Source of the DNA: an uncultured Alphaproteobacteria bacterium
GTDB taxonomy: Bacteria; Pseudomonadota; Alphaproteobacteria; Rhizobiales; Hyphomicrobiaceae
NCBI GenBank assembly: GCA_963819775.1
Contig: CAWFXM010000012.1
Coordinates: 391,319-455,318 of the forward strand
Direction: 5' to 3'
Length of the DNA: 64,000 bases
The number at the start of each line of letters is the position of its first letter. Positions within the stretch are counted from its first letter, which is position 1. The notes below the pieces were generated by a model that was not told where the DNA came from, did no database searches, and worked only from the letters and a program-made list of their open reading frames with translations. Made by a program: the position numbers and the translations under genes. Positions 9,048-49,999 of this stretch are shown here, one piece after another.

Positions 9048-10569
9048 TTCCGCGCCGCCGCGATAGGCCGGCGGAACAGGAAGAACCCGAGCGGCACGTC
9101 GTCGCCCGAAATCTGCGCCGTGCCGCGCACGCCCAGGCGCGGGGGCGGGCGGTTGCCGCTGGCCAACGTCGCGATGACGCGGAACGCGGCCACGTCGCCT
9201 TCGCCCGGCCGCGCCTTGTAGTCCGAACGGTCGATCTTACCGGCGAACGGCCGCAAGGGATCTGAATCGAGGAACGCCATGACGCGCGCGCCGGGCGTCA
9301 GCGCGATGGCATCCGCCACCGGCAGCTCGATCTTGAGTTCGATGGCCGCCGGATCGGCGATCTCCATGATGCGCTCGCCGACCGCCACCGGCTTGCCGGT
9401 CAGCTCACGCTTGTCGGCGAACACCGCGATGCCGCTGCGGGTGGCGCGCACCGCCGATTGCTCGAGCATGTCGCGCGCGTAGTTGCGTTCCGCCATCTTC
9501 AGCGCCAGTTCGGCGCGGGCGATGCCGAGCTCGTGCAGACCACGCGCGTCGGAAAACGCCATCTGCGTCGATTGCTTCAGCCGCGCGTCGGCCACCGTCA
9601 CCTCGCGCTCGGCGATTTCGAGGCGGTTCTTCAGCGTCGTGTCCGCCAGCCTCAACAGCACGTCGCCGGCCTTGACCGGCTGGTTCGGCTCCACGGCGAC
9701 GGTTTCGATCACGCCGTCGATCGGCGTTGCGACGACCAGCGCGCCGCGCGCGACGACCTCGGCCGGCGCCAGTGCGGTCAACGGCACCGGCACCAGCGCG
9801 AGCGCGCCCAGCACCACCGCCGTCGCCGCCGCATGCCGTTTCGACCATCGCTGCCAAGGTCGCGCCAGCTTGGGCGCCGCCAGCGCCGACCATGCGTGCG
9901 CATAGGCCCCGGCCAGCCGCTTGCCGACCACCAGATCCTGCTCGATCCACGCCGTCTCACGCGCGACCACCACCGCGCCGAGCATCGTGCCAGAGCGATG
10001 CCGCAGCGGCAGCGCGATGAGCGCGCGGAACGGATAGGCGGCGCCCGGGCCGCCACCCCCGTTGCTGTGCCCGCCGTCGTCCCCGGACTGCGGGTCGAGC
10101 GTCACCGCATCCGCCGCTTCGCCGGTCGCCAGTGCGGCGTTGACCATCGCTTCGATCCAGCCGACCAGCGGCGCGGTGCGATCGACGGCGGCGAGGCTCG
10201 ATACCGCCGTCACCTGCATCGCGCCCGGCCGGCCGGCCAGCACGAACACCTGGCGGGAGCGGACCAGCTTGCGCGTTTCGTTGGCGATCAAGTAGGCGAG
10301 ATCGCGCTCGCTCGCTGCCGCGCGCACCTCGGCTTCCACCCTGAGCAGCGCCACGAGGCCGGATTGCGCGTCCGCCGCGGCGACGGCCGGCCGTGCCGGT
10401 GCCGACGCCGACGCCGTTGACGCGGCCGCGCTTGCCTCTGGACTTGCCGCGGGGTTGGCCGCTGCCGCGTTGGCATTCGTCCGGTTTGGCCCGCCGCCGC
10501 CGCGTCCGTGGCGGGTCGCGGCGCCTGCGCACCTGTCGGCTTGCGAATGCGGCTGCTGATCACCGTCAT
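9032..10569 (-). CDS. HlyD-family periplasmic adaptor with a cytoplasmic GAF-like N-terminal domain; probable frameshift near 10490
   Basis: The C-terminal 300 aa of ORF 9032-11107 are HlyD-like (ATPIDGVIETVAVEPNQPVKAGDVLLRLAD...). An ATG at 10569 (ORF 10288-10569, MTVISSRIRKP) sits 7 nt after the upstream stop but in another frame. The span is 3n+2. Confidence 0.65.
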
Positions 10570-10575
10570 GGCGGG

Positions 10576-11361
10576 TTATCCGTTGGCCGGCTTGAAAAAC
10601 GCCGAGCCGCTCATCCCGGGCAGGATCTCGTCGGCGTCGCGCGTCTTCACGGCGATCACCTTGATCATCTGGCTGACCGGATCGACGGTTGCGGCGAGGC
10701 GCGACAGGGTCATCGGGTAGCTGCGCCCGGTTTCGTCGATGGCGAAGGTGAAGGCGTCGCCGGTCTTCAGCCACGTCAGCCACGACGACGGCACGATCAG
10801 CTCGATCTCGAGCCGGTCGGCGCCGACGATAGACAGGAACGGCTTGCCGGGGCCGGGCACTTCGTGCGCCTGCACGCCGAGCAAGGCGACGCGGCCGTCG
10901 AACGGCGCAACGACGACGCACTGGTCGAGCCGGGCCTTCAGCGCTTCGGCTTCCGCCGCGGCTTTGGCCACGCGGGCCTTCGAAATTTCCACGTCGTGGC
11001 GGCCGATGGCCTGATGCTTTTCGAGGAGTTTGTTGCTGTCGAGCGTCAGCTGCATCTCGCGATGCACCGCCTCGGCGCTGGCCGCTTCGGCGCGCGGCTT
11101 GCGGCAATCGAACTCGATCAGCGGCTGGCCGGCCTTGAAGCGCTCGCCCTCGCGAAAGTGAACCGACGTCACGCGGGCGCCGAGATCGGTCGAAAACGCC
11201 GCCTGATCGACAGCCCGCACCACGCCGCGGATCGGGATGGCATCGCCGTCCTGGCGCGTGTCTCCAGCCACCACCGGATTGCTCCCGGTCGCCGCCACGG
11301 CCCAGATGATCGTGCCCAGCAGTCCTGAACCCAGAACGCGGGTAATAGGTGAGGTACGCAT
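10576..11361 (-). CDS. HlyD/RND-type periplasmic adaptor (short form)
   Basis: 261-aa ORF with an N-terminal signal anchor, a lipoyl-like hairpin (IRGVVRAVDQAAFSTDLGARVTSVHFREGERFKAGQPLIEFD ... VVAPFDGRVA) and a coiled coil between its halves. Confidence 0.75.
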   Translation of the reverse strand: MRTSPITRVLGSGLLGTIIWAVAATGSNPVVAGDTRQDGDAIPIRGVVRAVDQAAFSTDLGARVTSVHFREGERFKAGQPLIEFDCRKPRAEAASAEAVHREMQLTLDSNKLLEKHQAIGRHDVEISKARVAKAAAEAEALKARLDQCVVVAPFDGRVALLGVQAHEVPGPGKPFLSIVGADRLEIELIVPSSWLTWLKTGDAFTFAIDETGRSYPMTLSRLAATVDPVSQMIKVIAVKTRDADEILPGMSGSAFFKPANG

Positions 11362-11684
11362 GTCACTCGTCCGAACCGGTCACGCCAGAGCCGACAACGG
11401 CTCCGGCAAAGCGCAGTATTCGGATAAAATGGCTTATGGAGCGTTAAGAGATTACAAGACAATTGACGTACCAAGTCACGGAATTCACGCCGTTTCTCTA
11501 CACGTCACTCGAGCATGATCGTTTGCGATGGAATCGCACCGCGATCCCATCTCAAACGTGAATCATGCTCTAATTCATAGCGTAGGAGTGCGATTCACGA
11601 TCTTGATTGTCGCGCCCCGCGCTTCAATCAAGAACGATCGCACTCCATGCGGCCCCCAGGCCAAGGTGACCCTCACGGTGGCCC

Positions 11685-13208
11685 TCACGGTGCCGCCGCC
11701 ATCCGCTTGTTCCAGCCGGCGCTGATGTCGCCACGCTCGAGCCACAGATCGCGCAGTTGCGCCGAAAGATCCGAGACGCTCTGGTCGCGATCGATCTCCC
11801 AGGCATAAGGGTCGAGGCCCATCGACGAGAACAGGTTGGCGTAGGCGTTCTGCAGCGTTGCATAGGCGATGTCGTGCTTGGCCTCGGCGACGAGCGTGTT
11901 CATCTCCTCGCGGATCAGCGTCTGCTTGCTGACCCGGTCGGCGGCCGCCTCGGCCCGCATCTGCCCGACCAGCCGCGACTGCACGTCGAGGAATTCGACC
12001 GACGTCGCCAGCTCCTTCTTGGAGTGCAGGAAGCGGACGCGGCTGACGTGGACCTGCGTCATGACGGCCATGGTCAGCGCCAGTCCTCGCGTCTTGAGCA
12101 GGTCCTCCTGCCGCTCCACCACCTTGCGGCGGGCGGGATAGTTGAACACCTTGATCAGGTTCCAACTGGCCTTGGCGCCCCAGTTCACCCACTCGTTGTG
12201 CAGCAGGAATTCGTTGCTGTCGTAGTTCGTGCCCGCATACATCTGCAGGCCCGGCAGCAATTCGAGCAGCGCTGCGTCGGCCTCGTGCTCGTTGATCCGC
12301 ACCCGATACTGCAGCTCGCGCAGCTCCGGCCGGTTGTAGATCGCCGTGGACATCATGTCCTTCAGATCGGCCTGCAGCTCGAGCTTGCCGTCCTTGCGCG
12401 CTTCCGCCGCCAGCTTGAACGGCGTGCCGGGGGCAATGTTCATCAGCGCGGCCAGCTGCGCCTTCGCCGTGTTCAGCTCGCGCTGGATCTCGCCGATCTT
12501 GACCTTGATCTCGACCAGCTCGCGCTCATACGTCAGCGCGGTGATCGGCGAGGTCTGCTTGCTCTTATAGAGTGCGCGAGTCTCCTGCAGTGCCGATCGC
12601 GTCTCGCCTTCCAGCTTGCCCAGCCGCTGCATCAGACGTTCGGCGCTGATCGTCCGCCAATAGGCGCTGCGCACGTCCTCGACGATGCGATGCATCACCT
12701 TGCGGCGCATTTCCTCCTGCACCAGCACCTTGTCGGCGGACTGGCGGGCGCGCACCAGCGACAGGCCGAAGTCGAGCATATTCCAGGTGAAGCCGATGTC
12801 GGCGACCGAGATCTTGCGCTCCTGCGAGGTCGAGTCGGCGAAATTCTGCGTGTTGGTGGTCAGATTGTAGCTCGACGCGGCGTTGTCGTTGTCACGGGCC
12901 GCATAGCCGCTGTTGACCACGGCGTTGGGCAGCAAACTGAAATGCGCCAGATCGAGCTCGCGCAGGCGCAGCGATTGCTCGGCGATTTCGACGCGATGAT
13001 CGAGATTGTATTTCAGCGCCCGCGCCATCGCCTCGTAGAGGTCGATCGCGCCGCCGATCGCTTCCTGGTCCGCCGTCACCTGCTGCTGATGCGTCGTCGA
13101 GGCCACGGTCAGGGCTTCGGTGGTCAGCGGCTGCGGCTTCACCACGCAGCCGGCCAGCAGCAGCGCCGCCGTCGATATCGACAAATGTCTCCGGAGTTTC
13201 GGCAGCAT
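11685..13208 (-). CDS. TolC-family outer-membrane efflux lipoprotein
   Basis: ORF 11685-13298. The internal start MLPKLRRHLSISTAALLLAGC carries a lipobox. The sequence is TolC-like throughout (LYEAMARALKYNLDHRV..., two repeated halves). Confidence 0.8.
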   Translation of the reverse strand: MLPKLRRHLSISTAALLLAGCVVKPQPLTTEALTVASTTHQQQVTADQEAIGGAIDLYEAMARALKYNLDHRVEIAEQSLRLRELDLAHFSLLPNAVVNSGYAARDNDNAASSYNLTTNTQNFADSTSQERKISVADIGFTWNMLDFGLSLVRARQSADKVLVQEEMRRKVMHRIVEDVRSAYWRTISAERLMQRLGKLEGETRSALQETRALYKSKQTSPITALTYERELVEIKVKIGEIQRELNTAKAQLAALMNIAPGTPFKLAAEARKDGKLELQADLKDMMSTAIYNRPELRELQYRVRINEHEADAALLELLPGLQMYAGTNYDSNEFLLHNEWVNWGAKASWNLIKVFNYPARRKVVERQEDLLKTRGLALTMAVMTQVHVSRVRFLHSKKELATSVEFLDVQSRLVGQMRAEAAADRVSKQTLIREEMNTLVAEAKHDIAYATLQNAYANLFSSMGLDPYAWEIDRDQSVSDLSAQLRDLWLERGDISAGWNKRMAAAP

Positions 13209-14033: not shown

Positions 14034-16868
14034 ATGTTCAAAGCACCGAATACCCGACCCGACGTGGACCCGGCGCCCGAAGCCGGAACCCCGTATGCCG
14101 CCACCGCTCCGCGGCCCATCGCGCGCCTCGTCCCGCACTCGGGCATCCAGATCATCGATCTCGAGTTGCCGGCGACCGTGCTGGCGCAGGTGCTGCACTC
14201 CTTCGCCGAGCATCGCTACGCCACGGGCGGCAGCTTCCGCACCATCCTGATGCCGCTCGACCGCGCCGGCAGCGGCGACGTCGTCTGGCACCCGGTCTCC
14301 CACCGCGCGCTCGCGCCCGACGAAATCATGTCGATCTCCGGTCAGTCCGCCATCGATTCGTTCGCCGGCCGCTGGGTGCCGCTGCCCTATCTGCGCTTTC
14401 TCGGACGCGACGAGGCGGGCCAACCGTCGTTCGATGCCGGCCCCGAGAACTGGGCGCGCGTGTTCATCGCGGCACCGTCGCCATCCGGCGGCAATTCGTC
14501 CGGCGGCGACGCCGGCGACGCGGCGGTCTACCGTCTGGCGCTCGCCTTCGACACCCGTCTCGACGCGGCCGATCGCAGTGGCGAACGCCGCTATCTCGCG
14601 CCCAATTCCGACGACGCCTTGCTCGGCGCGTCGTTCAAGCTGGCGACCGGCGCGGGCGATCTCGCGCGCTTCGCCAGCCGGCCGTGGATCGACGGCTGGC
14701 TGCGACAGGGCCTCGATGCCTACCGCGCGCGGCCCGGCGGTGGCGGATCGCGGTCGCCGTTCGAACTCGAGCACGTCGCCCGCTATCTGGTCCTGGCCGA
14801 GGTCTTGGGCCGCTACTGCGCGATGCCGGAGATCCGCTTCCTCGATACGCTGAGCAAGCGGTGGCCGGTGCCCATCACCGGCGTCGATCTCGTGCTCGAC
14901 ATGACCGCCTCCGATACCGCCGCCCTGCTGGTCGATCGCGATACCGGCGACGGCGGCGCGCCGCTGGCGTCCGCCGCCCCTCTGGCGCTCCGCGACTTGA
15001 CCAACCCCACTGCCCAGTTCTCAGGGCCGATCCCGACCCAGGTCGAGTTCGCTCTGCCGCCCTTTGGTGATGCCGGCCTGTCGCGCCGCAGTGGCCGTCC
15101 CGATGCCTTCCTCTGGCCGAGCCTCGCCCGCGTCGGGCAGGAGGCGGTCGCGCTGTCGCTCCGCGCCACGGCGACTGTGGGCGTCACCGGTCAATCCGAC
15201 TTGCCCGCACTGATGACCGAGACCGGTGCAGCCGACGACATCTGGCGAATAGGCGTCGATGGCGCCGGCGGCGGCATCGGCCCGGTCGTGTCGGGCGCCT
15301 TGCTCGCCCATGTCGCCGAGGACGGCACCCCGTTGTCCGCCGCCGATGCCGGGCGCGCGCCTGCCGTCCGGCCGCGCTTCGCGCTGTCGTCGCTGATGAC
15401 GTTCTTCCTGGCCGAGCTGCTGCTCCACGCCATCGCCGCCGTCAATGCCGTCGCCACCGCCGAAGATCCGCGCCGCCCCACCGGCGTGCGGCAGTTGCGC
15501 CGCATCGTCGTCACCGTCGCCGCCGGCATGCCGTACGACGAGCGCGCCGGCACCCTCGCCCACGTCGACCGGGCCATCGATCTGGTCTGGCGCGCCCTCG
15601 GCTGGGACGGAGCGCGGGAGATCGGCGCGCCGCCGCGACCCGAGACCAGCCTCGGCGCAGGCACCGAGCTGGCCAGCCAGCTCTATCAGTTCCGGCGTGA
15701 AATCGCGGCGCGCTACGGCAATGATTTCGGCCCGCTGATCGGCGCGCGCGACGGTGCCGACGGCGGCAGCGCGATGGTCGCCGTCCATGGTCCGCGCGGC
15801 CCCCATGTCGTCCGCGTCGCCAGCGTCGAGCTCGGCGGTCCGCTCACCGGCGCCATCGTCACCGACTACGCCGTCGCCGGCGATGGAATGCTGATGCCGC
15901 TGCAAGCCGTCACCGAGCGCTGGGCCGAGGGCGACACCGGCATCGGCGGCGCGATGGCCGAGCGGTTCATCCTCTCCGCCCTCACCACCGCGCTGGCCGA
16001 TCACGGCATCGGCGCGCCCGGCGTGTTCCTCTCCCGCACCCTCGACACCACCACGGCGCGGGCCAGCACCGAGCGCAATCTCGCCCGCCGCCTGCAGTCG
16101 AAAATCGTCCGCCCCGCCGCCGCAGCCCTGTTGCAGATCGCGCGCGAGTTGCCGCCGCGCATCGCCAGCGGGCAGCGCATCCAGTCGCTTCGCGGCCTCG
16201 TCGAGCGCGGCGGCGGACGCTTCGATCCCCATGCCGCCGAGTTCGACGCGCTGGCGCAGCGCGAGGGCGCGGCCGCATTCCGCCTCGACCGCGTCGAGAT
16301 CCGCTTCAGCCAGCGCCAGCTCGATCTGGCCATCCGCGCCGCCGCCGCCGAGGCGATCCGCCGCGCCGCCGATCTCGTCGCGCGTCAGCATTGCGATTTC
16401 GTCCTGATGTCGGGCAGTCTGACTGCAATCAGCGCCATCGCCGACGATGTCGTCGCCGCGCTCCCGCTCGAGCCCGGCCGCATCGTCATGCCCGCGCGCG
16501 GCGCCGAAGCCCGTGCGTCCGCCGAGCCCGGCGCCGGCCTCGCCGCGCTCACGCCCGTGCGGTTCGCCGGTCTCGCAGGCGCCTATCTCGCCGGCCGTGC
16601 CATGCCGGGCTTCGAAGCGTTCGACCGCGTGGTGCGCTCAATCGGCCGCGACGCGTCGACCTTGATGCCCGCGCCGCCGATGCTGTCGCTGCCCGGTGCC
16701 TCCGGCTCGAATTCGCCCGCGCCGGGAGCCGGCCTGGTGATCGACGTCCTGCCCCGCATGCTGTCGGCCTCGGCCGCGACAGCCACCAGCGCCACCGCCA
16801 CTGGCGAACGCGCCACCTTTGCCGAGCGCCCCACCCTTGCCGAGCGTGCCGGGAGCGTCGAGCCATGA
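14034..16868 (+). CDS. srfB: SrfB-like protein (virulence factor SrfB family)
   Basis: 944-aa ORF. The N-terminal blocks HSGIQIIDLELP and GRWVPLPYLRF...GPENWARVFI match my memory of SrfB family signatures. It is followed by an srfC-like gene with an ATGA overlap. Confidence 0.7.
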   Translation: MFKAPNTRPDVDPAPEAGTPYAATAPRPIARLVPHSGIQIIDLELPATVLAQVLHSFAEHRYATGGSFRTILMPLDRAGSGDVVWHPVSHRALAPDEIMSISGQSAIDSFAGRWVPLPYLRFLGRDEAGQPSFDAGPENWARVFIAAPSPSGGNSSGGDAGDAAVYRLALAFDTRLDAADRSGERRYLAPNSDDALLGASFKLATGAGDLARFASRPWIDGWLRQGLDAYRARPGGGGSRSPFELEHVARYLVLAEVLGRYCAMPEIRFLDTLSKRWPVPITGVDLVLDMTASDTAALLVDRDTGDGGAPLASAAPLALRDLTNPTAQFSGPIPTQVEFALPPFGDAGLSRRSGRPDAFLWPSLARVGQEAVALSLRATATVGVTGQSDLPALMTETGAADDIWRIGVDGAGGGIGPVVSGALLAHVAEDGTPLSAADAGRAPAVRPRFALSSLMTFFLAELLLHAIAAVNAVATAEDPRRPTGVRQLRRIVVTVAAGMPYDERAGTLAHVDRAIDLVWRALGWDGAREIGAPPRPETSLGAGTELASQLYQFRREIAARYGNDFGPLIGARDGADGGSAMVAVHGPRGPHVVRVASVELGGPLTGAIVTDYAVAGDGMLMPLQAVTERWAEGDTGIGGAMAERFILSALTTALADHGIGAPGVFLSRTLDTTTARASTERNLARRLQSKIVRPAAAALLQIARELPPRIASGQRIQSLRGLVERGGGRFDPHAAEFDALAQREGAAAFRLDRVEIRFSQRQLDLAIRAAAAEAIRRAADLVARQHCDFVLMSGSLTAISAIADDVVAALPLEPGRIVMPARGAEARASAEPGAGLAALTPVRFAGLAGAYLAGRAMPGFEAFDRVVRSIGRDASTLMPAPPMLSLPGASGSNSPAPGAGLVIDVLPRMLSASAATATSATATGERATFAERPTLAERAGSVEP

Positions 16869-19469
16869 CGCCAGCGCAACGCCTCACGCTGTCGGCCCGT
16901 CAGGCGGCCGAGCAGGCACAGCGGCTGCTGTCGTGGTTGCAGCACAGCAAGGACGACCGGCCGGAAATCGCCGGGCTCATCGACGAGATCGAAAGCATCT
17001 CCGGCGAGGTCGGGCGGGTCATCGACGCCATCGACACGCGGCCGACCATCGGCATCGCCGGCGGTTACGACTCGGGCAAAACCGCGCTGCTCGCCGCCCT
17101 GTCCGGCTCCGCCGATCAGCCGTTGCGCGCCGAATTCTCCAACCGCGAGGCCAGCCTCGACGTGCTCTCCAGCGTGCTGCCCAATCGCGGCGGCGCGCGA
17201 TCGTCGGCTGCCGTGCGCCTGTCGAAGCAGGATCTGCCCGCCGCGCCGCGCGGGTTTCCGGTGCGCGTCCGCATCCTCGGTCAGCTCGATCTGATCAAGC
17301 TCGTATTCCGCGCGCACGCCAGTCACATCGGCGCCGCCGCTGGTCAGGCGCCGTCGGCCCGCGCCGTCGCCAATCTGTTCACCGAGGCCGAGCGGCAGCT
17401 GCAGCCGCGCGCCGTGGCGGGCTTGTCCGCCCGCGATATCGTCGAGCTGCGCGAGGACGTGCATGGCTTCGATCCCTATTCGCCGTTGCTGCGCGTGCTC
17501 GCCGCCGCCGGCTACTGGGATCGCCTCGCGCTGACCGTCGCCCATCTGCCCGAAGTCGAGCGCACGCGGCTCGTCGCGCTGCTGTGGAACGAGGAGCCGG
17601 TCCTCACCGCCATCTATTCCGTGCTCAACAGCGCCATCGACAAGCTCGGCCACGCCACCGAGGTGTTCTGCGAGCTCGGCGCCATCGTCACGCGGGAGCC
17701 GGCCACCGGCTGGATGGTGCCGCATCGCGCCAGCATCGTCGCCGCCGACACGCTGGCCGGCCTCGCTCATGCGCTGGGCGCTGTGCCGGCCTCGACGGTG
17801 CAGGTTTCGGGCCGCTTCGGCGGTTCCATCGCGCTCGACCGCGCGGTGATGGCGACGCTCGCGGCCGAGCTGCCGTTGACCTTGCAGAGCGCGCCCATCG
17901 CCGGGCTCGCCGAAACCGACGTGGTCACGTTCCCTGGCGCGCCGCCGGTCGTCGAACTGGTCCGCTCCGATCCCGCTGCAGCGCTCGCCGCCGGCGGCGA
18001 GGTCCGTGGCGGCCTCGGCGTCGAGGCGGCGGTGTCGATCCTCGCCCAGGCCAAGAGCGTGTTCCTGCTCGAACGCGCCGCCCGCCGCCATCAGCTGGCG
18101 AGCCTCGTCGTCTGCCTCGATCCGGCCGAGCCGCCCGACGACGTGCTCGCCAGCGCCATCGGCGACTGGATCGCCACCGAGCAGGGCGTCGAGCCGCATC
18201 ACCGCGAGCGCGTCCGCACCGGCCTGTTCGTCGTCGTCACCCGCCCGCTCGGCGGCGGCGATAGCGTCAGCCGGGTCGAGCCGTGGCGTGCCGCCGCCGC
18301 AGACGACGCGGTCGTCCGCTCGGTGTCCGAAGGCATCGGCGTCGATCAGGACTGGCCGGGCGAATGGACGCCCAACCACCACTTCGACAACTACTTTGCG
18401 TTCCACCGGGCGGTGCGCGGGTCGGGCGCGCGAACCGGCGAAACCCAGCTCCGCCTCGTCAACGGCTCGGCCGCGAACACGGCCCCGGCGTCCAGCGGTG
18501 CCGACAGCCTCGTCCGCGCCCTCGCGGTGGTCGCCGTTCGCGTCAAGCGGCAACGCCTGCTCGGCCTGCATCTCGGCGGGCTGCGGCGGCGGCTGCGGTC
18601 GCGCGTGCTCCGCCATCATCTGTCGAACGATCCGATGGAAATCGCCGAATGGCGGCGTCAGGTCGCCAACGTCGCCGTCAATCGCCTGCGCCGTCCGATG
18701 CCGGGCGCACGATCAGGCAGTGTCAGCGCGGGCACGCTCGTCGCCGCATTGTCCGTCTCCGACGCCGAGCTGGCCGCCGCCATCGACACATCGCTGCGTT
18801 CGGATGTGCGTTCGGATGAGCGTTCTGGCCTTCGATCCGGACCCGCGCGCCGCCGCCGATGCCGCCACGGCCTTCGAAAATCCATCGTTCGGCCATGACT
18901 CCGCCGCAGCCGCCGTCGCCTATTGGTTGCGGGCCATGCGTCAGTCTGGACGCTCTGCCCGGTTCTGCCGGCACTTGGGGGTACCGCAAACCGTGTTGCA
19001 ACATGTGATCGACGAGCTGGCGATCGGCGCCGTTCGCACGGGTGTCGTCGCCGAGACGACAGCCGCCTTCGCCCGCTTGCCGCCGGCCATGTCGTCGTCG
19101 CCCGCCGCGCCCGTTCACCTTGCTGCTACCCCCGTTCACCTTGCTGCTACCGCAGTGCGGATCATCGAGGCCTACCTTGCTAGTATCCCCCGGACGGTCG
19201 CCGATCCTGCTGTCCGCGCGGGGCCGTCGCCGTCTCACGACGTCGTGCCGTCCCCGGCTGCCGGCCGGCACGTCGATGCCGCCGGTCCGCACCGCGCGCA
19301 ATCCCGCGCCGGTGCCTTCGGTGGTCCCGCCTGGACCAGCGCCGTCGCCGCACTGGTCGAAGCCAATATCGCGGCGGTCTCGGGTTTGGTCGATGCGGCG
19401 GAACGCGATCGGGAGCTCGGTGAATTGTTGACGGGATTCGCCTCCAGTCCATTCGAGGTCGAGCTGTGA
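16865..19469 (+). CDS. srfC: SrfC-like P-loop protein (putative bacterial virulence factor family); frame change near 18820
   Basis: The start MTPAQRLTLSARQ at 16865 overlaps the srfB stop. It has a P-loop IGIAGGYDSGKTALLAAL. ORF 16391-18898 continues in ORF 18006-19469 (..AFDPDPRAAADAATAFENPSFG..AYWLRAMRQSG..). The span is 3n+1. Confidence 0.65.
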
Positions 19470-20827
19470 GCGAAGTCACGATCGAAGTCGTCGAGGATGC
19501 CGAGCATCCCGAAGGTGGCCATGCCGTCATCCGTTTGAACGGCCTCTGGCTGCTGCCGGCCAATGCCACGTTCCGCATCGAACCACTCGACGACAGCAAC
19601 CCCGACCTGCTGCCGCCCGATTGGCCGCGCGGTGATCGCTCTCCCGTCGCCACGCGCCTGACGCCGCAGGGCGTCGAGATCGTCGTCGGGCCGGACATCG
19701 TCGATGCTTCGCCGCTGTTGCCGGGCACGCCGGTCGCCGTTTCGGTTCCGGCGGCGTTCGTCCGCGCCGAGGTGTTGTGGCCAGACCTGCCGGTCTCCGC
19801 CCCCGCCGCCGCCGCCCCCGTCGTCTTGACCGCCGCCGAGCTTGCGGCCGAGCTCGATGCCGTCGCCCTCGCCAACCGGCAGCGGGAGGAGGCCGAAGCC
19901 CTACAGCAATTGCGCCAGCAGATGAACGGCGCCGAAAAGGGCCATGACGCCGCCGACGTTGATTTGCGCGGGTTGTCGGAGTTGCGTCTGCGCCCGGCGT
20001 CCGCCGCCGCAGCGGACTCCGCCATCGACCTCTCGCCGGTCATGCCTGCCGCCGCCGACGGCGCGCAGAAGTCGTCGCGCGACGCAGCCATAGCGGCGTT
20101 CGTCACGCAGTCGGGGTCGTCCGCCACACCCAGTTCTCTGCCATCCTCGCAATCCGCCACGCAAGCCGCATCTGGCACTGCGCTGCAAGCCGACCCTGGC
20201 CGCTCGCGCGCGCTGGTGCCGGTCGGCGCGTCCTTCCGGCCGTCGCTGCGGCGGCCGCTCGGCATGGGCGTGCCGTTCGCGGTCGGCTTCGCCATCGCCG
20301 CGCTGTTGACGGGGCTGTTCGCCTGGCGGCAGGCCGGCACGCCGTCGTCACGCGGCATCGATGCCGCCGCTCCCGCCGCATCGCTCGCCGATCTGCTCGC
20401 GGTCGCTGTCGTCAGCCCGCGCGGCCGATCCGCCGCCGAGGTCGATTTGCCGACCGCCTTGAAGCTCGCCGACGAGAGCCTGCACGCCACGGCCGGCGGT
20501 GCCGACCGCCCCGAGGCGTCGTTCTGGCTGCGCAAGTCGCTCGCGCTGTCGGTCGGCACCCAGCAACTGTCGTGGACGTTGACACAGCTCGGCACCCTTT
20601 ACGCTCAACCCGCCGCCGGCGCGCCCGACTACGGCAAGGCGCGGCTGTTGTGGGAGTTGGCCGGGGCGAGCGGCGATGCCACCGCGCTCTGTTTCCTCGG
20701 CGCGCTGCACGAGCATGGGCTGGGCATCCCCAAAAGCCCGCGTCAGGCGCTCGGCCTCTATCAGCGTGCCAAGGCGCAAGGCGGTTGCAACGATGTCGAT
20801 GACGCGATCGCACGGGTGAGGAACTGA
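19466..20827 (+). CDS. Single-pass membrane protein with C-terminal Sel1-like repeats
   Basis: 453-aa ORF whose GTG start overlaps the srfC stop (GTGA). It has a TM segment MGVPFAVGFAIAALLTGLFAW. The Sel1 signature is ARLLWELAGASGDATALCFLGALHEHGLGIPKSPRQALGLYQRAKAQG. Confidence 0.7.
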   Translation: MSEVTIEVVEDAEHPEGGHAVIRLNGLWLLPANATFRIEPLDDSNPDLLPPDWPRGDRSPVATRLTPQGVEIVVGPDIVDASPLLPGTPVAVSVPAAFVRAEVLWPDLPVSAPAAAAPVVLTAAELAAELDAVALANRQREEAEALQQLRQQMNGAEKGHDAADVDLRGLSELRLRPASAAAADSAIDLSPVMPAAADGAQKSSRDAAIAAFVTQSGSSATPSSLPSSQSATQAASGTALQADPGRSRALVPVGASFRPSLRRPLGMGVPFAVGFAIAALLTGLFAWRQAGTPSSRGIDAAAPAASLADLLAVAVVSPRGRSAAEVDLPTALKLADESLHATAGGADRPEASFWLRKSLALSVGTQQLSWTLTQLGTLYAQPAAGAPDYGKARLLWELAGASGDATALCFLGALHEHGLGIPKSPRQALGLYQRAKAQGGCNDVDDAIARVRN

Positions 20828-20830
20828 CGC

Positions 20831-22305
20831 ATGGCCCGTTCCCGCCCCATTCCGCGCCCCGCACCCATGTTCGGGCCCATTTTCAGGCGCGAGGTCAAGA
20901 CCGGCGCCGCACTCGCGCTCGCCATTTGTGCGGCGGTCGCTTCTGCGCCGCAACCCGCGCTGGCGCAACGCGCCACGCCGCCGGCGTTCGTCGACGAGCG
21001 TCGCTTGCCGCCGACCGATGCCGAGATCAAGTCGAAGGCCGAGGAGCAGAAGCGTCAGGCCGCCGAAGCCGAAGTCAAACAGAAGGCCGAGGAGCAGCGC
21101 CGTCAATCCGCCGAAACCGAAGCCAAACAGAAGGCCGAGGAGCAGCGCCGTCAAGCCGCCGAAGCCGAAGCCAAGCAGAAAGCCGAGGAACAGCGCCGTC
21201 AGGCCGCCGAGGCCGAAGCCAAGCAGAAGGCGGAGGAACAGCGCCGTCAGGCCGCCGAAGCCGAAGCCAAGCAGAAGGCCGAGGAACAGCGCCGTCAGGC
21301 CGCCGAGGCCGAAGCCAAGCAGAAGGCCGAGGATGACGCCGTCAGGCCGCCGAAGCCGAAGCCAAGCGAAGGCGGAGGCAACGCCGTCAGGCCGCCGAAG
21401 CCGAAGCCAAGCAGAAGGCCGAGGAACAACGCCGTCAGGCCGCCGAAGCCGAAGCCAAGCAGAAGGCCGAGGAACAACGCCGTCAGGCCGCCGAAGCCGA
21501 AGCCAAACAGAAGGCCGCGAAGCCGCCGGCACCAGCCGCCCCGACGCCGACCCCCGCCGTCCGCGCCGCCGCAGACTGCAGCGCCGATCGCATCTCCGCC
21601 CGCGCCATCAGCGGTGGCCGCGTCCAGATCGAAATCGAGACGCCGTGCCGGCCCGGCCAGAAGGTCGCCCTCCGCTATGGCGCGTTCGACCTCCAGCGGC
21701 AGCTCGACGGGGCCGGCCGCGGCACCATCATCCTCGATCTGTTCCAGGGCAAGTCGCCCGCCGTTAGCCTTCAGATCGGCTCCGGGCCGCCGCAGTCCGT
21801 CTCGCTGGAGGCGGTCGATATGGCCGGCCTCTCCAAGGTCGCCGTCATTTGGCAAGCGCCGGTCAATCTCGATCTCCACGTCTACGAGTACGCCGCGCGT
21901 CACGGCGAGAGTGGACACGTCTGGCCCGGCGCGCCCTCGTCAGCCGATGCCGCCGAGGCGGAAACCCGCGCGTCAAAACGCGGGCGCGGTTTCCTCAGCA
22001 CCAGCGACGACGGCCGTGGTGACGGCGACAAGGTCGAGGTCTATACGTTCTGGCATCATGCCGAGCAGCGCTCGGGGCTGGTCGCCACTGCGCTCGACTA
22101 CGAAACGCGCGGCGCGTCGCCCAATGCCGACACCTGCGGGTCGGGCGTGCACGCCTCCGTGGTCTACGAGACGTTCATTCTCGATCCGCGCGGTCAGCTG
22201 AGCCGCGAGCGCGGCGCGATTGCACCGGCGACGTGCGGCTCGCAATTGACCGGCGCCGGCCGATACATGGAAGACGCAGTGCCTGACCTGAGCGCGATGC
22301 CTTGA
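20831..22305 (+). CDS. Secreted protein with a 16-aa KQKAEEQRRQAAEAEA tandem repeat coiled coil and a globular C-terminal domain; a 1-nt deletion lies near 21336
   Basis: Signal peptide AALALAICAAVASAPQPALA. ORF 20831-22201 leaves the repeat frame at 21336. The frame of ORF 21820-22305 is open back to there and continues the repeat (RRQAAEAEAKQKAEEQ), then runs into ..ADCSADRISARAISGGRVQIEIETPC... Confidence 0.6.
21040..21510. repeat. 48-bp tandem coding repeat, about 10 copies
   Basis: Repeated unit gccgaagccaagcagaaggccgaggaacagcgccgtcaggccgccgaa with minor variants. Confidence 0.85.
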
Positions 22306-22369
22306 GCCTGCCTGTCAAGAAATCATCGCGCCAATAAACAACACGACCTGAAACGGGGAGAGACGCGAC

Positions 22370-23992
22370 ATGACGGGCTGGACGTGGAGAAGGCCGGCAC
22401 GATGGACGGCTGCACGCGCGATCGGTTCCGCGGCAGCATTCGCCGTCGTGGCGGCTGGTGCGGGTGCGGTTCGGGCGGCGGAAATCACGCTGCAGATGAA
22501 AGGCGGCGGTTTCACCGTCCAGGGTGAGCTCAAATCCTACGACGGCGCGCGCTACGTCATCGAAAGCAAGGCGCTCGGCACCATGACGCTCGACGGCGGG
22601 CGTTTCGAATGCTCAGGCCCCGGCTGTCCGACCGCGCCCGTGACGGCGGCTCCGCCGAAGGGCGCCAATCTCGGCACCGCCACGTTCATGGGCGGCAGCG
22701 CGCAAGGCACCGCCGTGATGCCGAAGCTGGTCCAGGCCTACGCCAAGACCATCGGCGCCACCGTGATCCGCTCGGTCGGCAGTGATCCGAAAAACCTCGA
22801 GTTCAAGCTCACCGATGCGGCGGGCAAGGAGATCGGCAACTTCATCGTCGCCCGCCAGGGTGTGCCCGCCGGCCTCGCCGGGTTGCTCGCCCGCACCGTC
22901 GACGTGTTCTGGTCGGCGCGCCCGATCACCGCCGAGGAGCAGGCCCGCGCGCAGGCCCTGGGCTTCGGCAATCTGCGCGCGCCCGGCAACGAGAACGTCT
23001 ACGCCCTGAACGCCATCGCCATGGTGGTCGCGGCCGAAAACCCCGTCGTCTCGATCTCGATCGAAAATATCGCGAAGATCTACGCTGGCCAGATCAACGA
23101 CTGGTCCGAACTCGGCCTGCCGCCGGGCAAGATCAACGTCTACGCCATGGTCGAAAGCTCCGGCGTGTGGGGCTCCTTCGAGGATCTGGTGATGAAGCCG
23201 CGCAATCTCAAGGCGCGCCCCGACATCATCCGTATCGACGCGGCGACCGACTGGTCCGACAAGGTCGCGCAGGACAAGAGCGGCATCGGCATCACCAACA
23301 TCGGCATCGTCCGCAATTCCAAGGCGCTCAATGTCGAAGCGTCGTGCGGATTGATCGTGCGGCCCTCGAACTTCGCAGCCAAGACCGAGGAATATCCGCT
23401 GATGCACCGCCTGCATCTCTACACCTCCGGCGTGCCGAAGGTGCCGTTGGCGCGCGAGCTGCTCGCCTTCGCCATGTCGCCCGCCATGCAGCCTGTGCTG
23501 AAGGAGGCGAACTTCGTCGACCAGTCGCTCGAGGCCCTGGACTTCCAGGCCCAGACCGCGCGCATCGCCTACGCGCTCAATGCGCAGACCGAGGACTTCG
23601 ACATCAACATGATGCGCACCATGATCGGTGAGCTGAAAGGCTCGAGCCGGTTGTCGACCACGTTCCGCTTCGGCACCGCCGACGCCACGCTCGACAGCCG
23701 CGCCAACGCCGACATCCAGCGTCTCGCCGATCTGCTGAAGTCGGCCGACTACCGCAACAAGCAGGTCACGATCATCGGCTTCGCCGACGCCATCGGCAGC
23801 TTCGCGTCGAACCTCAAGCTGTCCGAGCGCCGCGCCGCCGCCGTGCTGCGCGCACTGACAGTGTCCGCCGGCATCGGCGTGCGCTCGCAAGTCACCAGTC
23901 GCGCCTATGGCGAGCTTGCGCCTGTCGCCTGCAACGACACGCCCGAGGCGCGCAACTACAACCGCCGCGTCGAAGTGTGGGTCAAGAACTGA
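22370..23992 (+). CDS. Periplasmic PstS-like (phosphate-binding-protein fold) domain fused to a C-terminal OmpA-like peptidoglycan-binding domain
   Basis: 540-aa ORF with an RBS ggggagag upstream. The OmpA_C signature is TFRFGTADATLDSRANADIQRLADLL..VTIIGFADAIGSFASNLKLSERRAAAV..RRVEVWV. Confidence 0.8.
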   Translation: MTGWTWRRPARWTAARAIGSAAAFAVVAAGAGAVRAAEITLQMKGGGFTVQGELKSYDGARYVIESKALGTMTLDGGRFECSGPGCPTAPVTAAPPKGANLGTATFMGGSAQGTAVMPKLVQAYAKTIGATVIRSVGSDPKNLEFKLTDAAGKEIGNFIVARQGVPAGLAGLLARTVDVFWSARPITAEEQARAQALGFGNLRAPGNENVYALNAIAMVVAAENPVVSISIENIAKIYAGQINDWSELGLPPGKINVYAMVESSGVWGSFEDLVMKPRNLKARPDIIRIDAATDWSDKVAQDKSGIGITNIGIVRNSKALNVEASCGLIVRPSNFAAKTEEYPLMHRLHLYTSGVPKVPLARELLAFAMSPAMQPVLKEANFVDQSLEALDFQAQTARIAYALNAQTEDFDINMMRTMIGELKGSSRLSTTFRFGTADATLDSRANADIQRLADLLKSADYRNKQVTIIGFADAIGSFASNLKLSERRAAAVLRALTVSAGIGVRSQVTSRAYGELAPVACNDTPEARNYNRRVEVWVKN

Positions 23993-24038: not shown

Positions 24039-24071
24039 CTCTCCCCGTTCGTCCTTTACGAATGGGGAGAG
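24039..24071 (+). terminator. Stem-loop (REP-like hairpin) closing the srfB operon
   Basis: ctctcccc at 24039-24046 pairs with ggggagag at 24064-24071, with further pairing inside (ccgttcgt / acgaatgg). It lies 47 nt after the stop at 23992. Confidence 0.5.
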
Positions 24072-24174: not shown

Positions 24175-25344
24175 ATGACACGAGCCGCATCTGGCCGAGC
24201 GTCGGGCCTCACCATTGGGCGAGGGTTCGCCTCCGCCGTGCTGATGGCGCTGATGACGGCGAGCATCGCGGCCGCTTGGCCCGTCGCCGCCCAGACCCGG
24301 CTCGCACAGGTCGCGCCCGCGCCGCCGCCAGCCGCGCCAGCTGCAAAATCGGCAGCCCCTAAGCCCGCCGCGGCGCCCGGGGCGCCCAAGGCAGTCGCGC
24401 CGGCAGCTCCCAAGGCAGCGGCCCCCGCGCCGGCCGCCGCCTGGCAACCCTCCAAGCCGATCGAGTTCGTGGTCATGGCCGGCCCCGGCGGCGGCGCCGA
24501 TCAGGCCGTCCGCTTCCTCGTCGACGTCATCGCCAAGCAGGGCCTCGCCAAGGTGCCGTTCACCGTCGTCAATGAGCCGGGCCGCTCGGGCGGCGACGCG
24601 CTGACCAAGCTGCAGGCCCGCGCCGGCGACGATCACGTCATTCTGTTCACGTTGAACAGCTTCTACACGACGCCGCTCGACATGCCCGACCTCAAGATCG
24701 ACGTCGCGCGCTTCACGCCTATTGCTCGGTTGGCGGAAGATGTGTTCCTGCTGTGGGTCAACAGCGAGCGCGCCGACATCAAGACCATCGACGACTTCGT
24801 CAAGGCCGCCAAGGCCAAGGGCAAGGGCTGGGTGATGGCCGGCACCGGCAAGGGCGCCGAAGATCAATTGCTGACCGAGTTCCTCAACGCCACCTATGGC
24901 CTCGACATGACCTACAAGTCGTTCGGCGGCGGTGGCGAGGTGGCCAAGGAGCTGGCCGAAAAGCGCGCCAATTCGACCGTCAACAATCCCTCCGAGCAGA
25001 ACAATTTTTATCCCAAGGGCATGACCAAGCCGATCGTCGCCTTCACGCCCGCCCGGCTGCCGGCCTACATCACCACGCCGACGCTGCGCGAGACCGGCAT
25101 GGACTTCACCTATTTCATGCAGCGCTCGGTGGTCGGCGCGCCGCGCATGAGCCCCGGCGCCGCGGCGTGGTACGACAAGCTGTTCCGGTCCCTGTTCGAC
25201 AGTCCGCAGTGGAAAGACTACGCCACCAAGAACAGCCTCGGCGGCGCACTTCTCACCGGCCAAAGCCTCATGGGCTATTGGGTTCAAGAGCGGGAAAAGC
25301 ACGCCCGCTGGAAAATGGCCATCGAGCTGATGAAGCCGCAATAA
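24175..25344 (+). CDS. Tripartite tricarboxylate transporter substrate-binding protein (TctC/Bug family) with an Ala/Pro-rich linker
   Basis: In-frame ATG at 24175 within ORF 23977-25344, with RBS gaaagg. It has a signal peptide, then APAPPPAAPAAKSAAPKPAAAP..., then Bug-like core motifs (PIEFVVMAGPGGGADQ, SFGGGGEV). Confidence 0.8.
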   Translation: MTRAASGRASGLTIGRGFASAVLMALMTASIAAAWPVAAQTRLAQVAPAPPPAAPAAKSAAPKPAAAPGAPKAVAPAAPKAAAPAPAAAWQPSKPIEFVVMAGPGGGADQAVRFLVDVIAKQGLAKVPFTVVNEPGRSGGDALTKLQARAGDDHVILFTLNSFYTTPLDMPDLKIDVARFTPIARLAEDVFLLWVNSERADIKTIDDFVKAAKAKGKGWVMAGTGKGAEDQLLTEFLNATYGLDMTYKSFGGGGEVAKELAEKRANSTVNNPSEQNNFYPKGMTKPIVAFTPARLPAYITTPTLRETGMDFTYFMQRSVVGAPRMSPGAAAWYDKLFRSLFDSPQWKDYATKNSLGGALLTGQSLMGYWVQEREKHARWKMAIELMKPQ

Positions 25345-28087: not shown

Positions 28088-31000
28088 TCAGGCGCGCCGC
28101 TCGTTCGGCGCCGGCGACAGCCGCGCCTCCCGCAGCGTGTCCTCGAGTTGCTGCTCGACGCGGGCCCAATCGCTCTCCGACGATCGCGCGCCCGAGCGCA
28201 GGCTCGCCCGCACCGCCTTGGTCGCGATCAGCAGCATGCGCTCGTGCGGCTGCAATTCGCCTTCCGCCGCGCGCGGCTCGAGCTGATGGATGAGGTTGTC
28301 GATGACCTGATCGTACGGGCCATCCGGCAGCAGCATCAGCACATCCCAATTGTCTTCGACTTCCTTTTGCGCGTGCTGCAGGGCCCAGTGGCTCTCCGAC
28401 GGCAGCTTCTTCAGCAGGTTCTCGGACTGCCGCTGCAGCGAGCCGCGCACCTCGTCCTCGCGCATCGCCAGCGCGTCGTCGAACATCGCGTTCATCATCC
28501 GCGCGCGATTGAACAAATCGGCAGCCGGCAGCGCCGCCGAAAACGCCTCGGACGACATCGAAGCATAGGCCACCGCATCGACGCCGATGGCATTGATCAG
28601 CGACTCGAGGATCAGCCGCAGCACCTCGGCGTTCGACGATTGCGGCGTCGCTCCGGGTTCGCCAGCCGATGCCGGTGCCGCTGCTGGTGGCGCAACCGGC
28701 GACGCGATGGCCTTCTGCGGCTTGGCCGCTGCAAGTCGCGGATCGGCGCCCGACAATGCGCCGCCGTCGCGAATGGCTCCCGCCTGCGGTCCGGCAATCT
28801 GCGGCCGGCCATAACCTCCGCCAGCCATGCTGCGGGCGCGGATGCGCGCCAGCGTCTTGTACAGATCGGCGTGCACGATGTAGCGCGGCGGCGGGCTGTC
28901 CTTGCGGTCGAAGCGATGCACCAGCTGATACGTCGAGCCGGCGTTCAGCACGTTGCGCACGATGCGCTTGTGATCCTCGTCGACCTCGCTCAGCAGCACC
29001 TCGGACGCAAATCCGGGGAAGCCCTTCTCCTCCGAGATCGGATGGAAGTGGCCGAGCACCACGTCCGCGCTCGCGCCCACATCCGGCAGCAGCGCCACCG
29101 CGATCATCTTTTCCAGCTCGATGGCCTTCACCGACTGCTCGACATTCTCGGTGAACTTGCCGCGGTTCTTGTCGTAGGCGCGCTTGGCGACGATGGCTAG
29201 GAACTGCATCAGCTCCTCGCGCACCATGTACCGCCCGTCCTCGCGCTTCACCGCGCCGATGGTGGCGCCCGCCGACAACACCTCGCGCAACCGGCCCGCG
29301 GTCTCGGGGTCGAGATCGCGCGTATCGACCTCGGCCACGTAGCCCTCGGTATTGGTGATCGGATGCAGCGCGCCGAGCACCATCTTGGCGTTGGCGAAGG
29401 TGTCGGGCAGCAGCGCGTTCTCGATGATCGCCTCCAGCTGCTGCGCCGAGCGGGCCTTCGAGGTCGGCACGTCCGACAGCGGCGAGCGGGTGGCGTTGGC
29501 AGCGAAAAGTCCCGACATGAAGATGAGGCTGTCGATGGCGATGGCGATGGCGAGCGCGAGGTAGGCGAGGCGGTTGCCGTCGCCGAACGCATTCCACGTC
29601 ACCACGAAGCGATGCGCCTTGTCGTCGCGATTGAGCTCGATGAAGTTGATCTTGGTGCGAAGTTTCTCGGTCTCCTTCGACGGCAGTCCGCTGTCGGCGA
29701 GGCACTTCCTCGCAAAGCCGAACAGCCCGTCGGCGGTGGTGTGCTCGGCCAGCCGGTCGCCGCCCGCACAGGACTTGGCAAAGGTCTCGTTGCCGGCGTT
29801 GAGCGCGAACACCAGCGCCGCGGCCTCCGCCGCCTGCTTTGGGTCACAGTCGAGGCCGGCCACCTTCTTCTTGGTCTCCGGCGTCGCCGTCGCCATCGCG
29901 GTATAGATCTGCCCGCAGGTCTGCTGCAGCTTCGAAAGCCGCTCGGCGGTCGGGTCCTGGCGGAAGTCGGAGCGCGCGGTCTCGAACAGCGGCACCAGCC
30001 GCGACGGGTCGAGCTTGGTCTTGGGGTCGGTCAGCGCGGTCTCCTGCGCCAGCTTGATGCGGCTCTCCGCCGTCTCCGTCTCACCTTTATACTTCGCGAG
30101 GTCGCCATCCACCGCCGCCAGCTCGCGCTTCAGCTGGGCGATGCGCGTCTCCGTGGCGTCGAGGCGCTTCTTGGAATCCTTGACCCGCTCCTCGCCGACT
30201 TTGATGTAGTCCTGCAGTTTTCCAAGCTCGTCCATGCGCTGGCGGAAGAATTGCCCGCGGCCCACTTTGCCGGTGCCCTCGACGCCCTTCTCCTCGGCCA
30301 TCGCTTCCACGCGCTTGGCATCCACTTCCTTGGCGCGCGCGTCGAGCGCCGTCTTCTTCTCCGCATAGTCGGCCGACAGCGCCGGGCGATCCGCCTCCAG
30401 CCGCGACAGCTCGTCGGTCAGCGACAGCTTGCGGCTCTGCAGCCCGGCCTGGCTCGACACCGCCGTGGTGATGCGCTCCTGCTGCTGCTTGATCGCGCGG
30501 TTCTTGTCCTCGACCATGGCGTTGAAATAGGTCTCGATCTCCGCGCCCGATCCCTGCGCGGCCTTGGCCAGCGCCGACAATCCCTCGTCATAGGCGCGCC
30601 AGCCGTCGCTGGTGAACAGCGTCTCGGCCTCGCTGCAGCCGCTTCTCGGAAATGCTGTGGCCGATGTCGCCGACGATGCCCGCGACCTGGTTCTGCGCGC
30701 GGATCTCGGCGGCGCGCACGCGCTCCGACTGCGGGAAGATCGCCGTGAACAAGCTGTCGAAGGAGAAGAACACGCTGGTCGCCATGCAGGCGAGGAACAT
30801 CACCCACAGCACCGCATTCTTGACGATCACCCGCGCGCTCTGCACATACGAGCCGCCGATGTCGCTCTTGGTCATGGCGATGATCAACGCGAAGATCATC
30901 GCCGTCACCGCGCCGTAAAGCGCGAAGCTCTGGATGGTGCGCGCGGCTGAGCTATCGAACCAGTTGCTGCTGGCGACCGCCGCGGCCGTGCCGCCCTGGC

Positions 31001-49948: not shown

Positions 49949-49999
49949 GGCCGCGCGCTGCCCGAGCGTCCGGCCTCGTATGTGTGAGCCCGCGCCCGA

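Follow-up and report, generated by a model that had tools for sequence, protein, structure and literature searches.

In a 64-kb stretch of DNA from an uncultured alphaproteobacterium of the Hyphomicrobiaceae (contig CAWFXM010000012.1; the whole stretch of 64,000 nucleotides is hereafter called the window), we see a cluster of co-directional genes that begins with relatives of srfB and srfC and continues with genes for envelope proteins. Sequence comparison indicates that this cluster is a variant of the known but uncharacterised Srf system; its function is something that we infer from the parts, as we do its biological role, the existence of a complex and the way in which signals would run. 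The reading we favour, to which we give a probability of roughly 0.55, is that the gene products form one envelope-spanning assembly, a Hyphomicrobium-type, SrfA-less Srf variant that would work as a tether or sensor. An original prediction, made from the sequence of the window, had proposed a candidate trans-envelope system at this site. Support for that still predicted system comes from the SrfB and SrfC family matches, the absence of SrfA, the conserved synteny and a set of gene fusions.

We refer to the single-pass Sel1 protein as g3, to the signal-peptide repeat protein as g4 and to the PstS-like/OmpA fusion as g5; L and P numbers (L001, P0154 and so on) are labels for compared loci and proteins. 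The unit probably comprises six genes, the TctC-like gene being included because it always follows g5 in this arrangement. The features are as follows (nt, nucleotides; aa, amino acids; TRF, Tandem Repeats Finder).

14034-16868, plus strand: SrfB-like gene, 944 aa, PF07520
16865-19469, plus strand: SrfC-like gene, ~868 aa after removal of a 1-nt insertion, PF10139
19466-20827, plus strand: g3, 453 aa, predicted single-pass inner-membrane adaptor
20831-22305, plus strand: g4, ~490 aa once the frame is repaired, predicted periplasmic spacer
21034-21517, plus strand: 48-nt tandem repeat array in g4, 10.2 copies (TRF)
22370-23992, plus strand: g5, 540 aa, PBP_like_2 and OmpA domains
24039-24071, plus strand: hairpin in the spacer between g5 and the TctC-like gene, perfect 14-bp stem
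24175-25344, plus strand: TctC-like (Bug family) gene, PF03401, the sixth gene

The original prediction described the first five genes as co-directional and almost unspaced, and the open reading frames, overlaps and gaps are indeed as it described them. The srfB and srfC genes are adjacent on the same strand with an ATGA overlap at 16865-16868, srfC and g3 share a GTGA overlap, and gaps of 3 nt and 64 nt separate g3 from g4 and g4 from g5, respectively. However, the spans given for SrfC and g4 hide frameshifts, which are considered together with the competing explanations.

Gene order and fusions around SrfB and SrfC

The order SrfB-SrfC-g3-g4-g5-TctC is seen in at least 11 loci, among them L001, L003, L005, L008, L013, L087, L092, L093, L107 and L113, in all of which the TctC-like gene follows g5, and it is retained in relatives with SrfB only ~35% identical. 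Positions 3974-26834 of the window are collinear with a contig of a Hyphomicrobium sp. metagenome-assembled genome (MAG; L001, JALHOF010000005) at ~79% nucleotide identity. This collinearity, together with the recurrence among such distant relatives, excludes a chance arrangement. L090, L105 and L106 show a second order, g3-g4-g5-SrfB-SrfC-g3', and L138, whose arrangement is given below, can be counted with them.

Gene fusions connect the same partners. Within the family of proteins that carry the N-terminal domain of g3 (g3N), 11 representatives consist of g3N, a transmembrane helix and the C-terminal domain of g4, and a further 2 consist of g3N, a transmembrane helix and g5 with its small domain, PBP_like_2 and OmpA. 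The small domain of g5 stands at the periplasmic end of 5 g3N family representatives, and it also terminates the g3 homologues of L006 and L105. Fusions lie directly after SrfC in L138, where the gene order is g4-g5-SrfB-SrfC-[g3N::g4C]-g5', and in L140, where it is SrfB-SrfC-[g3N::g5]. Because the association recurs in at least two gene orders, and because g3N is fused to g4 or g5 directly after SrfC, these comparisons indicate that SrfBC and the envelope genes are genuinely linked. The synteny of the downstream genes with SrfBC, which had been put forward for checking, is kept in many genomes, in both orders and with the fusions in addition.

The predicted parts of g3 are an N-terminal domain (residues 1-105), an Ala-rich linker, one transmembrane helix (~267-285) and Sel1 repeats. 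The N-domain gave no Pfam match. A word-indexed homologue search with the 115-aa N-domain returned 2 matches only, and an exhaustive search of 1.84 billion proteins was needed to assemble the family of 270 representatives. In nearly all of the best 150 of these 270 the domain is N-terminal, and a single hydrophobic (transmembrane) helix lies 60-250 residues after it in 66 of 67 proteins. Sel1 repeats are present in 61 of 80 g3N family representatives; the window's g3 scores 30.3 bits for Sel1 (PF08238) vs a gathering cut-off of 30.7, and the L016 orthologue scores 52.8 bits.

Among the 57 loci with enough sequence downstream of SrfC, the g3 N-domain lies directly 3' of SrfC in 54, across Alpha- and Gammaproteobacteria and including loci that bear SrfA; it follows SrfC in nearly every non-enteric locus. 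As this holds even alongside SrfA, the sequence evidence makes g3 a core partner of SrfC and not a recruit. The idea that all three envelope proteins were recruited to SrfBC therefore needs amending: g4 and g5 are syntenic with SrfBC as supposed, but g3 is a core partner in SrfA-bearing loci too. We predict that g3-type proteins are single-pass adaptors, with a cytoplasmic N-domain, a linker, a transmembrane helix and a variable periplasmic end.

A profile hidden Markov model (HMM) of SrfA was built from 31 homologues in the fetched loci, seeded by the annotated SrfA of an Ewingella plasmid. It gave no match at E≤10 among all open reading frames of ≥50 aa in the 64-kb window, nor in any Hyphomicrobiaceae locus, which bears out the earlier statement that no srfA-sized gene is present; it was positive in 26 other loci. 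Sorted by content, 26 loci have SrfA only, 19 have g4/g5 only, 40 have neither and 0 have both, in agreement with the suggested anticorrelation, although these are plain counts from phylogenetically related loci with no statistical test. In Acetobacteraceae, Methylobacterium and Lichenihabitans, 1-3 tandem SrfA paralogues lie upstream of SrfB, and a trypsin-like peptidase is fused to one of these; some Competibacteraceae have SrfA copies downstream instead.

SrfA has a layout of N-domain, transmembrane helix and periplasmic domain like that of g3, and its N-domain, as modelled with AlphaFold 3, serves as a platform for SrfB and SrfC (preprint 10.64898/2026.09.18.752743, which also covers Lol-like, vWA and FGE neighbours of Srf clusters). 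We considered g3 as a displaced SrfA homologue and dropped the idea, as hhalign gave a probability of 0.05% for the g3 N-domain against the SrfA N-domain. On this comparison g3 is an architectural analogue of SrfA and not a homologue.

Predicted folds and nucleotide motifs

SrfB matched PF07520 over residues 31-819 (E 1.5e-110; 371 bits vs a cut-off of 27.1). Neither SrfB nor SrfC has an N-terminal hydrophobic signal-like segment, and NCBIfam holds no family for SrfB, SrfC or g3. An AlphaFold 2 (AF2) model of SrfB (pLDDT 77.8, pTM 0.82) was compared with the PDB by Foldseek, and the top matches were all Hsp70 nucleotide-binding domains (NBDs; e.g. Ssz1, DnaK and mortalin), with E ~1e-9, prob 1.0 and TMt up to 0.63. 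SrfB is thus predicted to combine an N-terminal beta domain with an Hsp70-type (ASKHA) nucleotide-binding fold that carries large inserts. Since a SrfB profile had no match at E≤1 among PDB sequences, and no PDB Hsp70 was reached by sequence, this fold call comes solely from the AF2 model and Foldseek. In the model, the beta-hairpin loops 290-294 and 599-605 lie at the places expected of the ASKHA phosphate-1 and phosphate-2 loops.

The N-terminal part of SrfC matched PF10139 (Virul_Fac) with E 9e-58 and 196.7 bits, and the C-terminal part, in the other frame, matched profile positions 699-878 with E 4e-6 and 25.8 bits. At loose thresholds, a SrfC profile searched against the PDB and Pfam gave P-loop-level matches only (HflX, GBP, MMR_HSR1 and AAA_16). 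The canonical SrfC motifs, near-universal outside the Hyphomicrobiaceae clade, are GPSQxGKS (G1), TGLVTRF (G2), DLLDFPG (G3) and LTKFD (G4); the patterns GxxxxGKS, DxPG and TKxD are ones that we take to resemble G1, G3 and G4 of the dynamin superfamily. SrfC is accordingly a predicted relative of dynamin-type GTPases.

In the window, the Walker A of SrfC alone is kept out of all the SrfB and SrfC nucleotide motifs. The canonical SrfB loops D[IV]GN[SA]RTC and D[IV]GGGTTD are near-invariant in the sampled non-Hyphomicrobiaceae loci, with one exception (L021), and the window SrfB has DMTASDTA and ELGGPLTG vs the canonical DIGNSRTC and DIGGGTTD. In SrfC, G1 (Walker A) is kept as GGYDSGKT, and G2 (SAAVRLS), G3 (DVVTFPG) and G4 (VTRPL) are lost. 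The P-loop GGYDSGKT noted by the original prediction is present, but it does not imply an active NTPase, as G2-G4 of SrfC and both SrfB phosphate loops are degenerate in the clade. This decay of both proteins is confined to the clade of the window, which is monophyletic in the SrfB tree and comprises 17 tips, all SrfA-less Hyphomicrobiaceae. A separate SrfA-less, g4/g5-linked clade (L090, L105, L138 and L140) keeps near-intact motifs, so linkage to g4/g5 is independent of motif decay.

In SrfC, some deviation from the GTPase consensus also occurs outside the Hyphomicrobiaceae, as the enteric SrfC of the Ewingella plasmid (L081 10015-12411) shows: it keeps Walker A and TLVTRF, and has LFPT for DFPG and TPFD for TKFD. 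In three Competibacteraceae loci (L053, L066 and L070), a large dCache-HAMP-PAS-GGDEF-EAL protein is encoded between SrfB and SrfC (~13768-17217 in L070), an insertion that hints at a link of Srf systems to cyclic-di-GMP signalling in this family.

The g4 protein starts with a signal peptide, which is followed by a charged helix of AEAEAKQKAEEQRRQA repeats and a Pro-rich linker, and it ends in two predicted beta-sandwich domains; its gene always adjoins g5. AF2 modelled the C-terminal 261 residues as two beta-sandwich domains with a pLDDT of 92.6. No Pfam match was found for g4, and a functional lead from its C-domain was dropped after Foldseek returned generic tandem Ig-like/adhesin matches only, with a TM-score of ~0.2. 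The charged repeat matches TolA at ~26 bits, where the NCBIfam cut-offs are 213 and 59.45, and the repeat region alone matches.

In g5, a signal peptide and a small uncatalogued beta domain (~36-92) precede a PstS-like periplasmic binding domain (PBP_like_2, 57 bits) and an OmpA-like peptidoglycan-binding domain (PF00691, 62.2 bits). Its PDB relatives are PstS and the C-domain of OprF. Aligned to the latter, the OmpA domain keeps the LSERRA and NRRVE motifs, which bind peptidoglycan. Against TIGR02136 (PstS), g5 scores 93 bits, below the cut-off of 206.6, and does not reach the PstS equivalog level. Compared with PDB 4n13, the PstS motifs GSSVG, SSR and RDSSSG read GVPAG, SAR and VESSG, so that several phosphate-binding Ser and Arg residues are replaced. 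Among the protein families expected for the first five genes, SrfB, SrfC, PBP-like and OmpA were matched, with Sel1 borderline in g3 as given above.

The 180-nt spacer between g5 and the TctC-like gene holds the 14-bp hairpin, which had been thought to close the operon. The perfect stem is present, but it is not a canonical terminator, and the conserved TctC-like gene lies beyond it. The hairpin has no U tract and was not picked up by the terminator scan; it is unique within the window, and no related locus yielded the exact sequence of its arm. Its readings as a canonical intrinsic terminator and as a repeat element were dropped on these grounds. The TctC-like protein scores 50.9 bits for PF03401 vs a cut-off of 27 and has a signal peptide and an Ala/Pro-rich linker; its gene also follows g5 in the SrfBC-less loci L094, L095 and L103. 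On the minus strand at 24286-24365, inside the Ala/Pro-rich N-terminal region of this protein, ARAGORN called an 80-nt tRNA-Ala(GGC), which is probably a false positive; Rfam had none at its gathering threshold.

Another type of periplasmic binding protein, NMT1_3 (TAXI-like, ~320-350 aa), is encoded after the g3-type gene in L009, L010, L014, L015, L016 and L020 and in Competibacteraceae loci. As the NMT1_3 protein is present where g4/g5 are missing, this suggests that Srf clusters repeatedly include some binding protein of the flytrap type.

Proposed assembly and competing explanations

In the assembly that we propose, SrfB, with its Hsp70-like fold, and SrfC, as a dynamin-type relative, would be located on the cytoplasmic side of the inner membrane and dock on the N-terminal domain carried by the single-pass adaptor g3. 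The Sel1 repeats of g3 would hold a periplasmic arm, made up of g4, with its long charged helix and two beta-sandwich domains, and of g5, which would contribute the small beta domain, a Venus-flytrap domain of PstS type and, as its hold on peptidoglycan, an OmpA-like anchor. The arm probably includes the TctC-like binding protein as well. In other lineages, the same cytoplasmic pair may be coupled to other periplasmic ends via SrfA and g3-type adaptors. Most likely, the whole would connect the cell wall with a cytoplasmic scaffold of SrfB and SrfC, as a tether or sensor that depends on ligand or state, and we favour this over a motor because the ATP and GTP motifs have decayed in the window clade.

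A wider generalisation is possible, and we offer it as a tentative one. Srf systems overall may be an unrecognised class of envelope-spanning machine, in which an Hsp70-like ATPase and a dynamin-type GTPase sit on interchangeable adaptors (SrfA and g3) with periplasmic ends swapped between lineages (lipocalin, Sel1, protease, beta-sandwich, or binding protein with OmpA anchor). On that view, the Hyphomicrobium clade would have turned into a pseudo-enzyme form of the machine that links the cell wall passively to the cytoplasm, for sensing or positioning.

Several observations weigh against the assembly that we propose. The predicted topology of g3, with the N-domain cytoplasmic and the Sel1 repeats periplasmic, comes from hydropathy alone, and in the deposited sequence neither SrfC nor g4 of the window stays in one reading frame. 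In L083-L085, L094, L095 and L103, no SrfBC lies within 10 kb of the g4-g5 pair, which often has TctC beside it, so this periplasmic pair can function by itself or with partners at a distance. Missing g4/g5 are seven Hyphomicrobiaceae loci with SrfBC-g3 (L006, L009, L010, L014-L016 and L020), most of which encode another Sel1 protein plus a binding protein of the NMT1_3 type instead. Both kinds of incomplete locus would also suit two unrelated neighbours, an SrfB-SrfC-g3 unit and an autonomous periplasmic g4-g5-TctC unit that share a strand but not a function. We consider such a pairing of unrelated modules unlikely, in view of the g3N::g4C and g3N::g5 fusion proteins directly after SrfC, the g5 small domain on g3-type proteins, the persistence of the association in two different gene orders, and the 3-4 nt gaps or overlaps that join genes in the window and in L001.

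The frameshifts are best read as artefacts of an assembly with frequent indel errors. Neither the SrfC span (2605 nt) nor the g4 span (1475 nt) is divisible by three. As deposited, SrfC runs in frame 2 over 16865-18898 and then in frame 0 to 19469, with the switch near 18846 in a variable linker, where a translated comparison with the intact relative P0154 (at least 90% identical) points to one extra G in TCCGGACCCG. In g4, frame 2 gives way to frame 1 at ~21333 (frame 1 from 21337), within the 48-nt x 10.2 array (TRF score 716, 92% matches), which encodes a 16-residue helical repeat and has several 1-nt deletions in two central units at ~21320-21400. A coding-potential scan combined with Pfam detected the same type of split in argH (58053-59334, minus strand), where Lyase_1 profile positions 1-213 and 230-312 lie in different frames, and in dapD (60611-61490, plus strand), where THDPS_N_2 and Hexapep do. 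We read the SrfC and g4 shifts as assembly indels, and take both genes to be intact, because argH and dapD are split likewise and because relatives are intact (SrfC of 854 aa and g4 of 458 aa in L001; SrfC of 863 aa in P0154). Two frameshifts among five genes could also mean that the cluster is decaying in this genome, with SrfC and g4 as pseudogenes. This reading was dropped as very improbable, given the identical defect in two housekeeping genes, the repeated frame changes of a large adhesin gene, and the frames 3' of both shifts, which remain open and conserved. SrfC also has two short in-frame tandem duplications: a 12-nt unit x2.6 at 18795-18825, which gives four extra residues vs P0154, and a 21-nt unit x2 at 19110-19151, which encodes PVHLAAT twice and is present in P0154 too.

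It is rather unlikely, in our estimation, that the cluster is an NTP-dependent conflict or defence system that watches the envelope for phage or some other invader, with SrfB and SrfC as the switch and the variable periplasmic domains as sensors. The notion draws on canonical relatives, in which as many as three SrfA paralogues occur, one of these with a trypsin-like peptidase attached, together with a vWA protein, an FGE-sulfatase protein and a MacB/Lol-like ABC ATPase plus FtsX permease. Bacterial conflict systems often contain such domains (vWA, peptidase, ABC/FtsX and FGE-sulfatase). On a constant N-domain, the periplasmic ends also vary greatly, and PADLOC gave a weak LeoA match (E 2e-4). 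However, that LeoA match is at P-loop level, it was accompanied only by OmpA-domain matches to ZorB, and PADLOC gave no meaningful match. The window cluster has no effector-like domain, its NTPase motifs are degenerate, and it is embedded in a stretch of chromosome, no defence island, that a relative shares collinearly at 79% nucleotide identity.

We give almost no credence to a secreted multi-part cytotoxin, even though SrfABC of Xenorhabdus is reported as cytotoxic, that of X. stockiae being both cytotoxic and insecticidal (PMC6950479). The window has no SrfA, its SrfB and SrfC have no N-terminal signal-like segment and have decayed nucleotide motifs, their partners are anchored to the cell wall, and the host is a Hyphomicrobium relative. 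Elsewhere, SrfA has been argued to be a membrane-anchored platform (preprint 10.64898/2026.09.18.752743), and for the FlhDC-controlled srfABC of Salmonella the mutant phenotype lies in swarming, which is poor (PMC4219756).

Flanking genes and comparison with known systems

The window has a high GC content of ~0.65-0.73. Upstream of SrfB, on the minus strand at 6870-13184, lie genes for an M50-peptidase/HlyD fusion, two HlyD proteins and a TolC-like OEP. Beyond these, 1-6041 (minus strand) holds coding segments in different frames with matches to Cadherin_4, Cadherin_5, Big_9 and DUF4347, which are probably pieces of one or two giant adhesin genes that frameshifts have interrupted; the M50/HlyD, HlyD, HlyD and OEP genes look like the secretion apparatus of these adhesins. 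Past the TctC-like gene, genes for a cytochrome b561 and a cytochrome c' are found on the other strand. An 830-aa protein with a strong coding signal and a weak DUF4407 match is encoded at 28088-30580 (minus strand), and an alphaproteobacterial SAM riboswitch (RF00521, 81 bits) lies at 49888-49966 (plus strand), just 5' of a coding region with its start near 50000.

Proteins of the SrfB and SrfC families occur widely under the label 'virulence factors', but no biochemical role has been accepted for them. The analysis supplies a testable parts list, namely a predicted Hsp70-like fold for SrfB, dynamin-type motifs in canonical SrfC, the uncatalogued g3N adaptor domain, and fusions that name periplasmic partners. 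Our literature search found no paper on the Hyphomicrobium arrangement without SrfA, on the g3 N-domain or the g4 domain, on fusions of PstS with OmpA or on the decay of the motifs, and none that links SrfB to Hsp70 or SrfC to dynamin in bacteria. A clade in which both nucleotide sites have decayed but the proteins are conserved offers a natural contrast for the role of nucleotide hydrolysis. For annotation in free-living Hyphomicrobiales, the data speak against naming these genes 'virulence factor' or 'toxin'.

Like the srfABC operon of Salmonella, Xenorhabdus and Haemophilus, whose products are described as SsrB/FlhDC-regulated factors and as a reported 'SrfABC toxin', the window unit has adjacent SrfB (PF07520) and SrfC (PF10139) genes with overlapping stop and start codons, and includes a single-pass membrane protein with a predicted cytoplasmic N-domain and periplasmic C-domain. 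It differs in that SrfA is missing, g4, g5 and TctC are added, and SrfB and SrfC carry degenerate nucleotide motifs. The membrane protein also differs: g3 lies downstream, has another N-domain (hhalign 0.05%), and ends in Sel1 repeats where SrfA has a lipocalin-like domain. Also related are the extended Srf clusters of the Acetobacteraceae (Roseomonas group) and the Competibacteraceae (Haemophilus and Xenorhabdus in the preprint), in which SrfB-SrfC is likewise followed by a g3-type single-pass protein with the same N-domain. These clusters, in contrast, keep 1-3 SrfA paralogues and intact Hsp70- and dynamin-type motifs, and their partners are vWA, ABC/FtsX and FGE-sulfatase proteins (in Competibacteraceae, an NMT1_3 binding protein and the GGDEF-EAL protein) instead of g4/g5.

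Looking further afield, SrfB is predicted to share the fold of the Hsp70 (DnaK) NBD, but it has no sequence-level match to any PDB Hsp70, and the window copy has lost most catalytic motifs. The canonical motifs of SrfC resemble G1, G3 and G4 of bacterial dynamin-like proteins (LeoA, BDLP), whereas its sequence matches reach the P-loop level only, and here too most catalytic motifs are lost from the window copy. The predicted layout is comparable to that of Tol-Pal, with an inner-membrane-anchored protein, a long charged periplasmic helix (in g4) and an OmpA-like peptidoglycan anchor (in g5, as in Pal). However, the cluster has neither the TolQ/TolR channel proteins nor TolB, the TolA matches of g4 are far below cut-off and reflect composition only, and the cytoplasmic partners are SrfB and SrfC.

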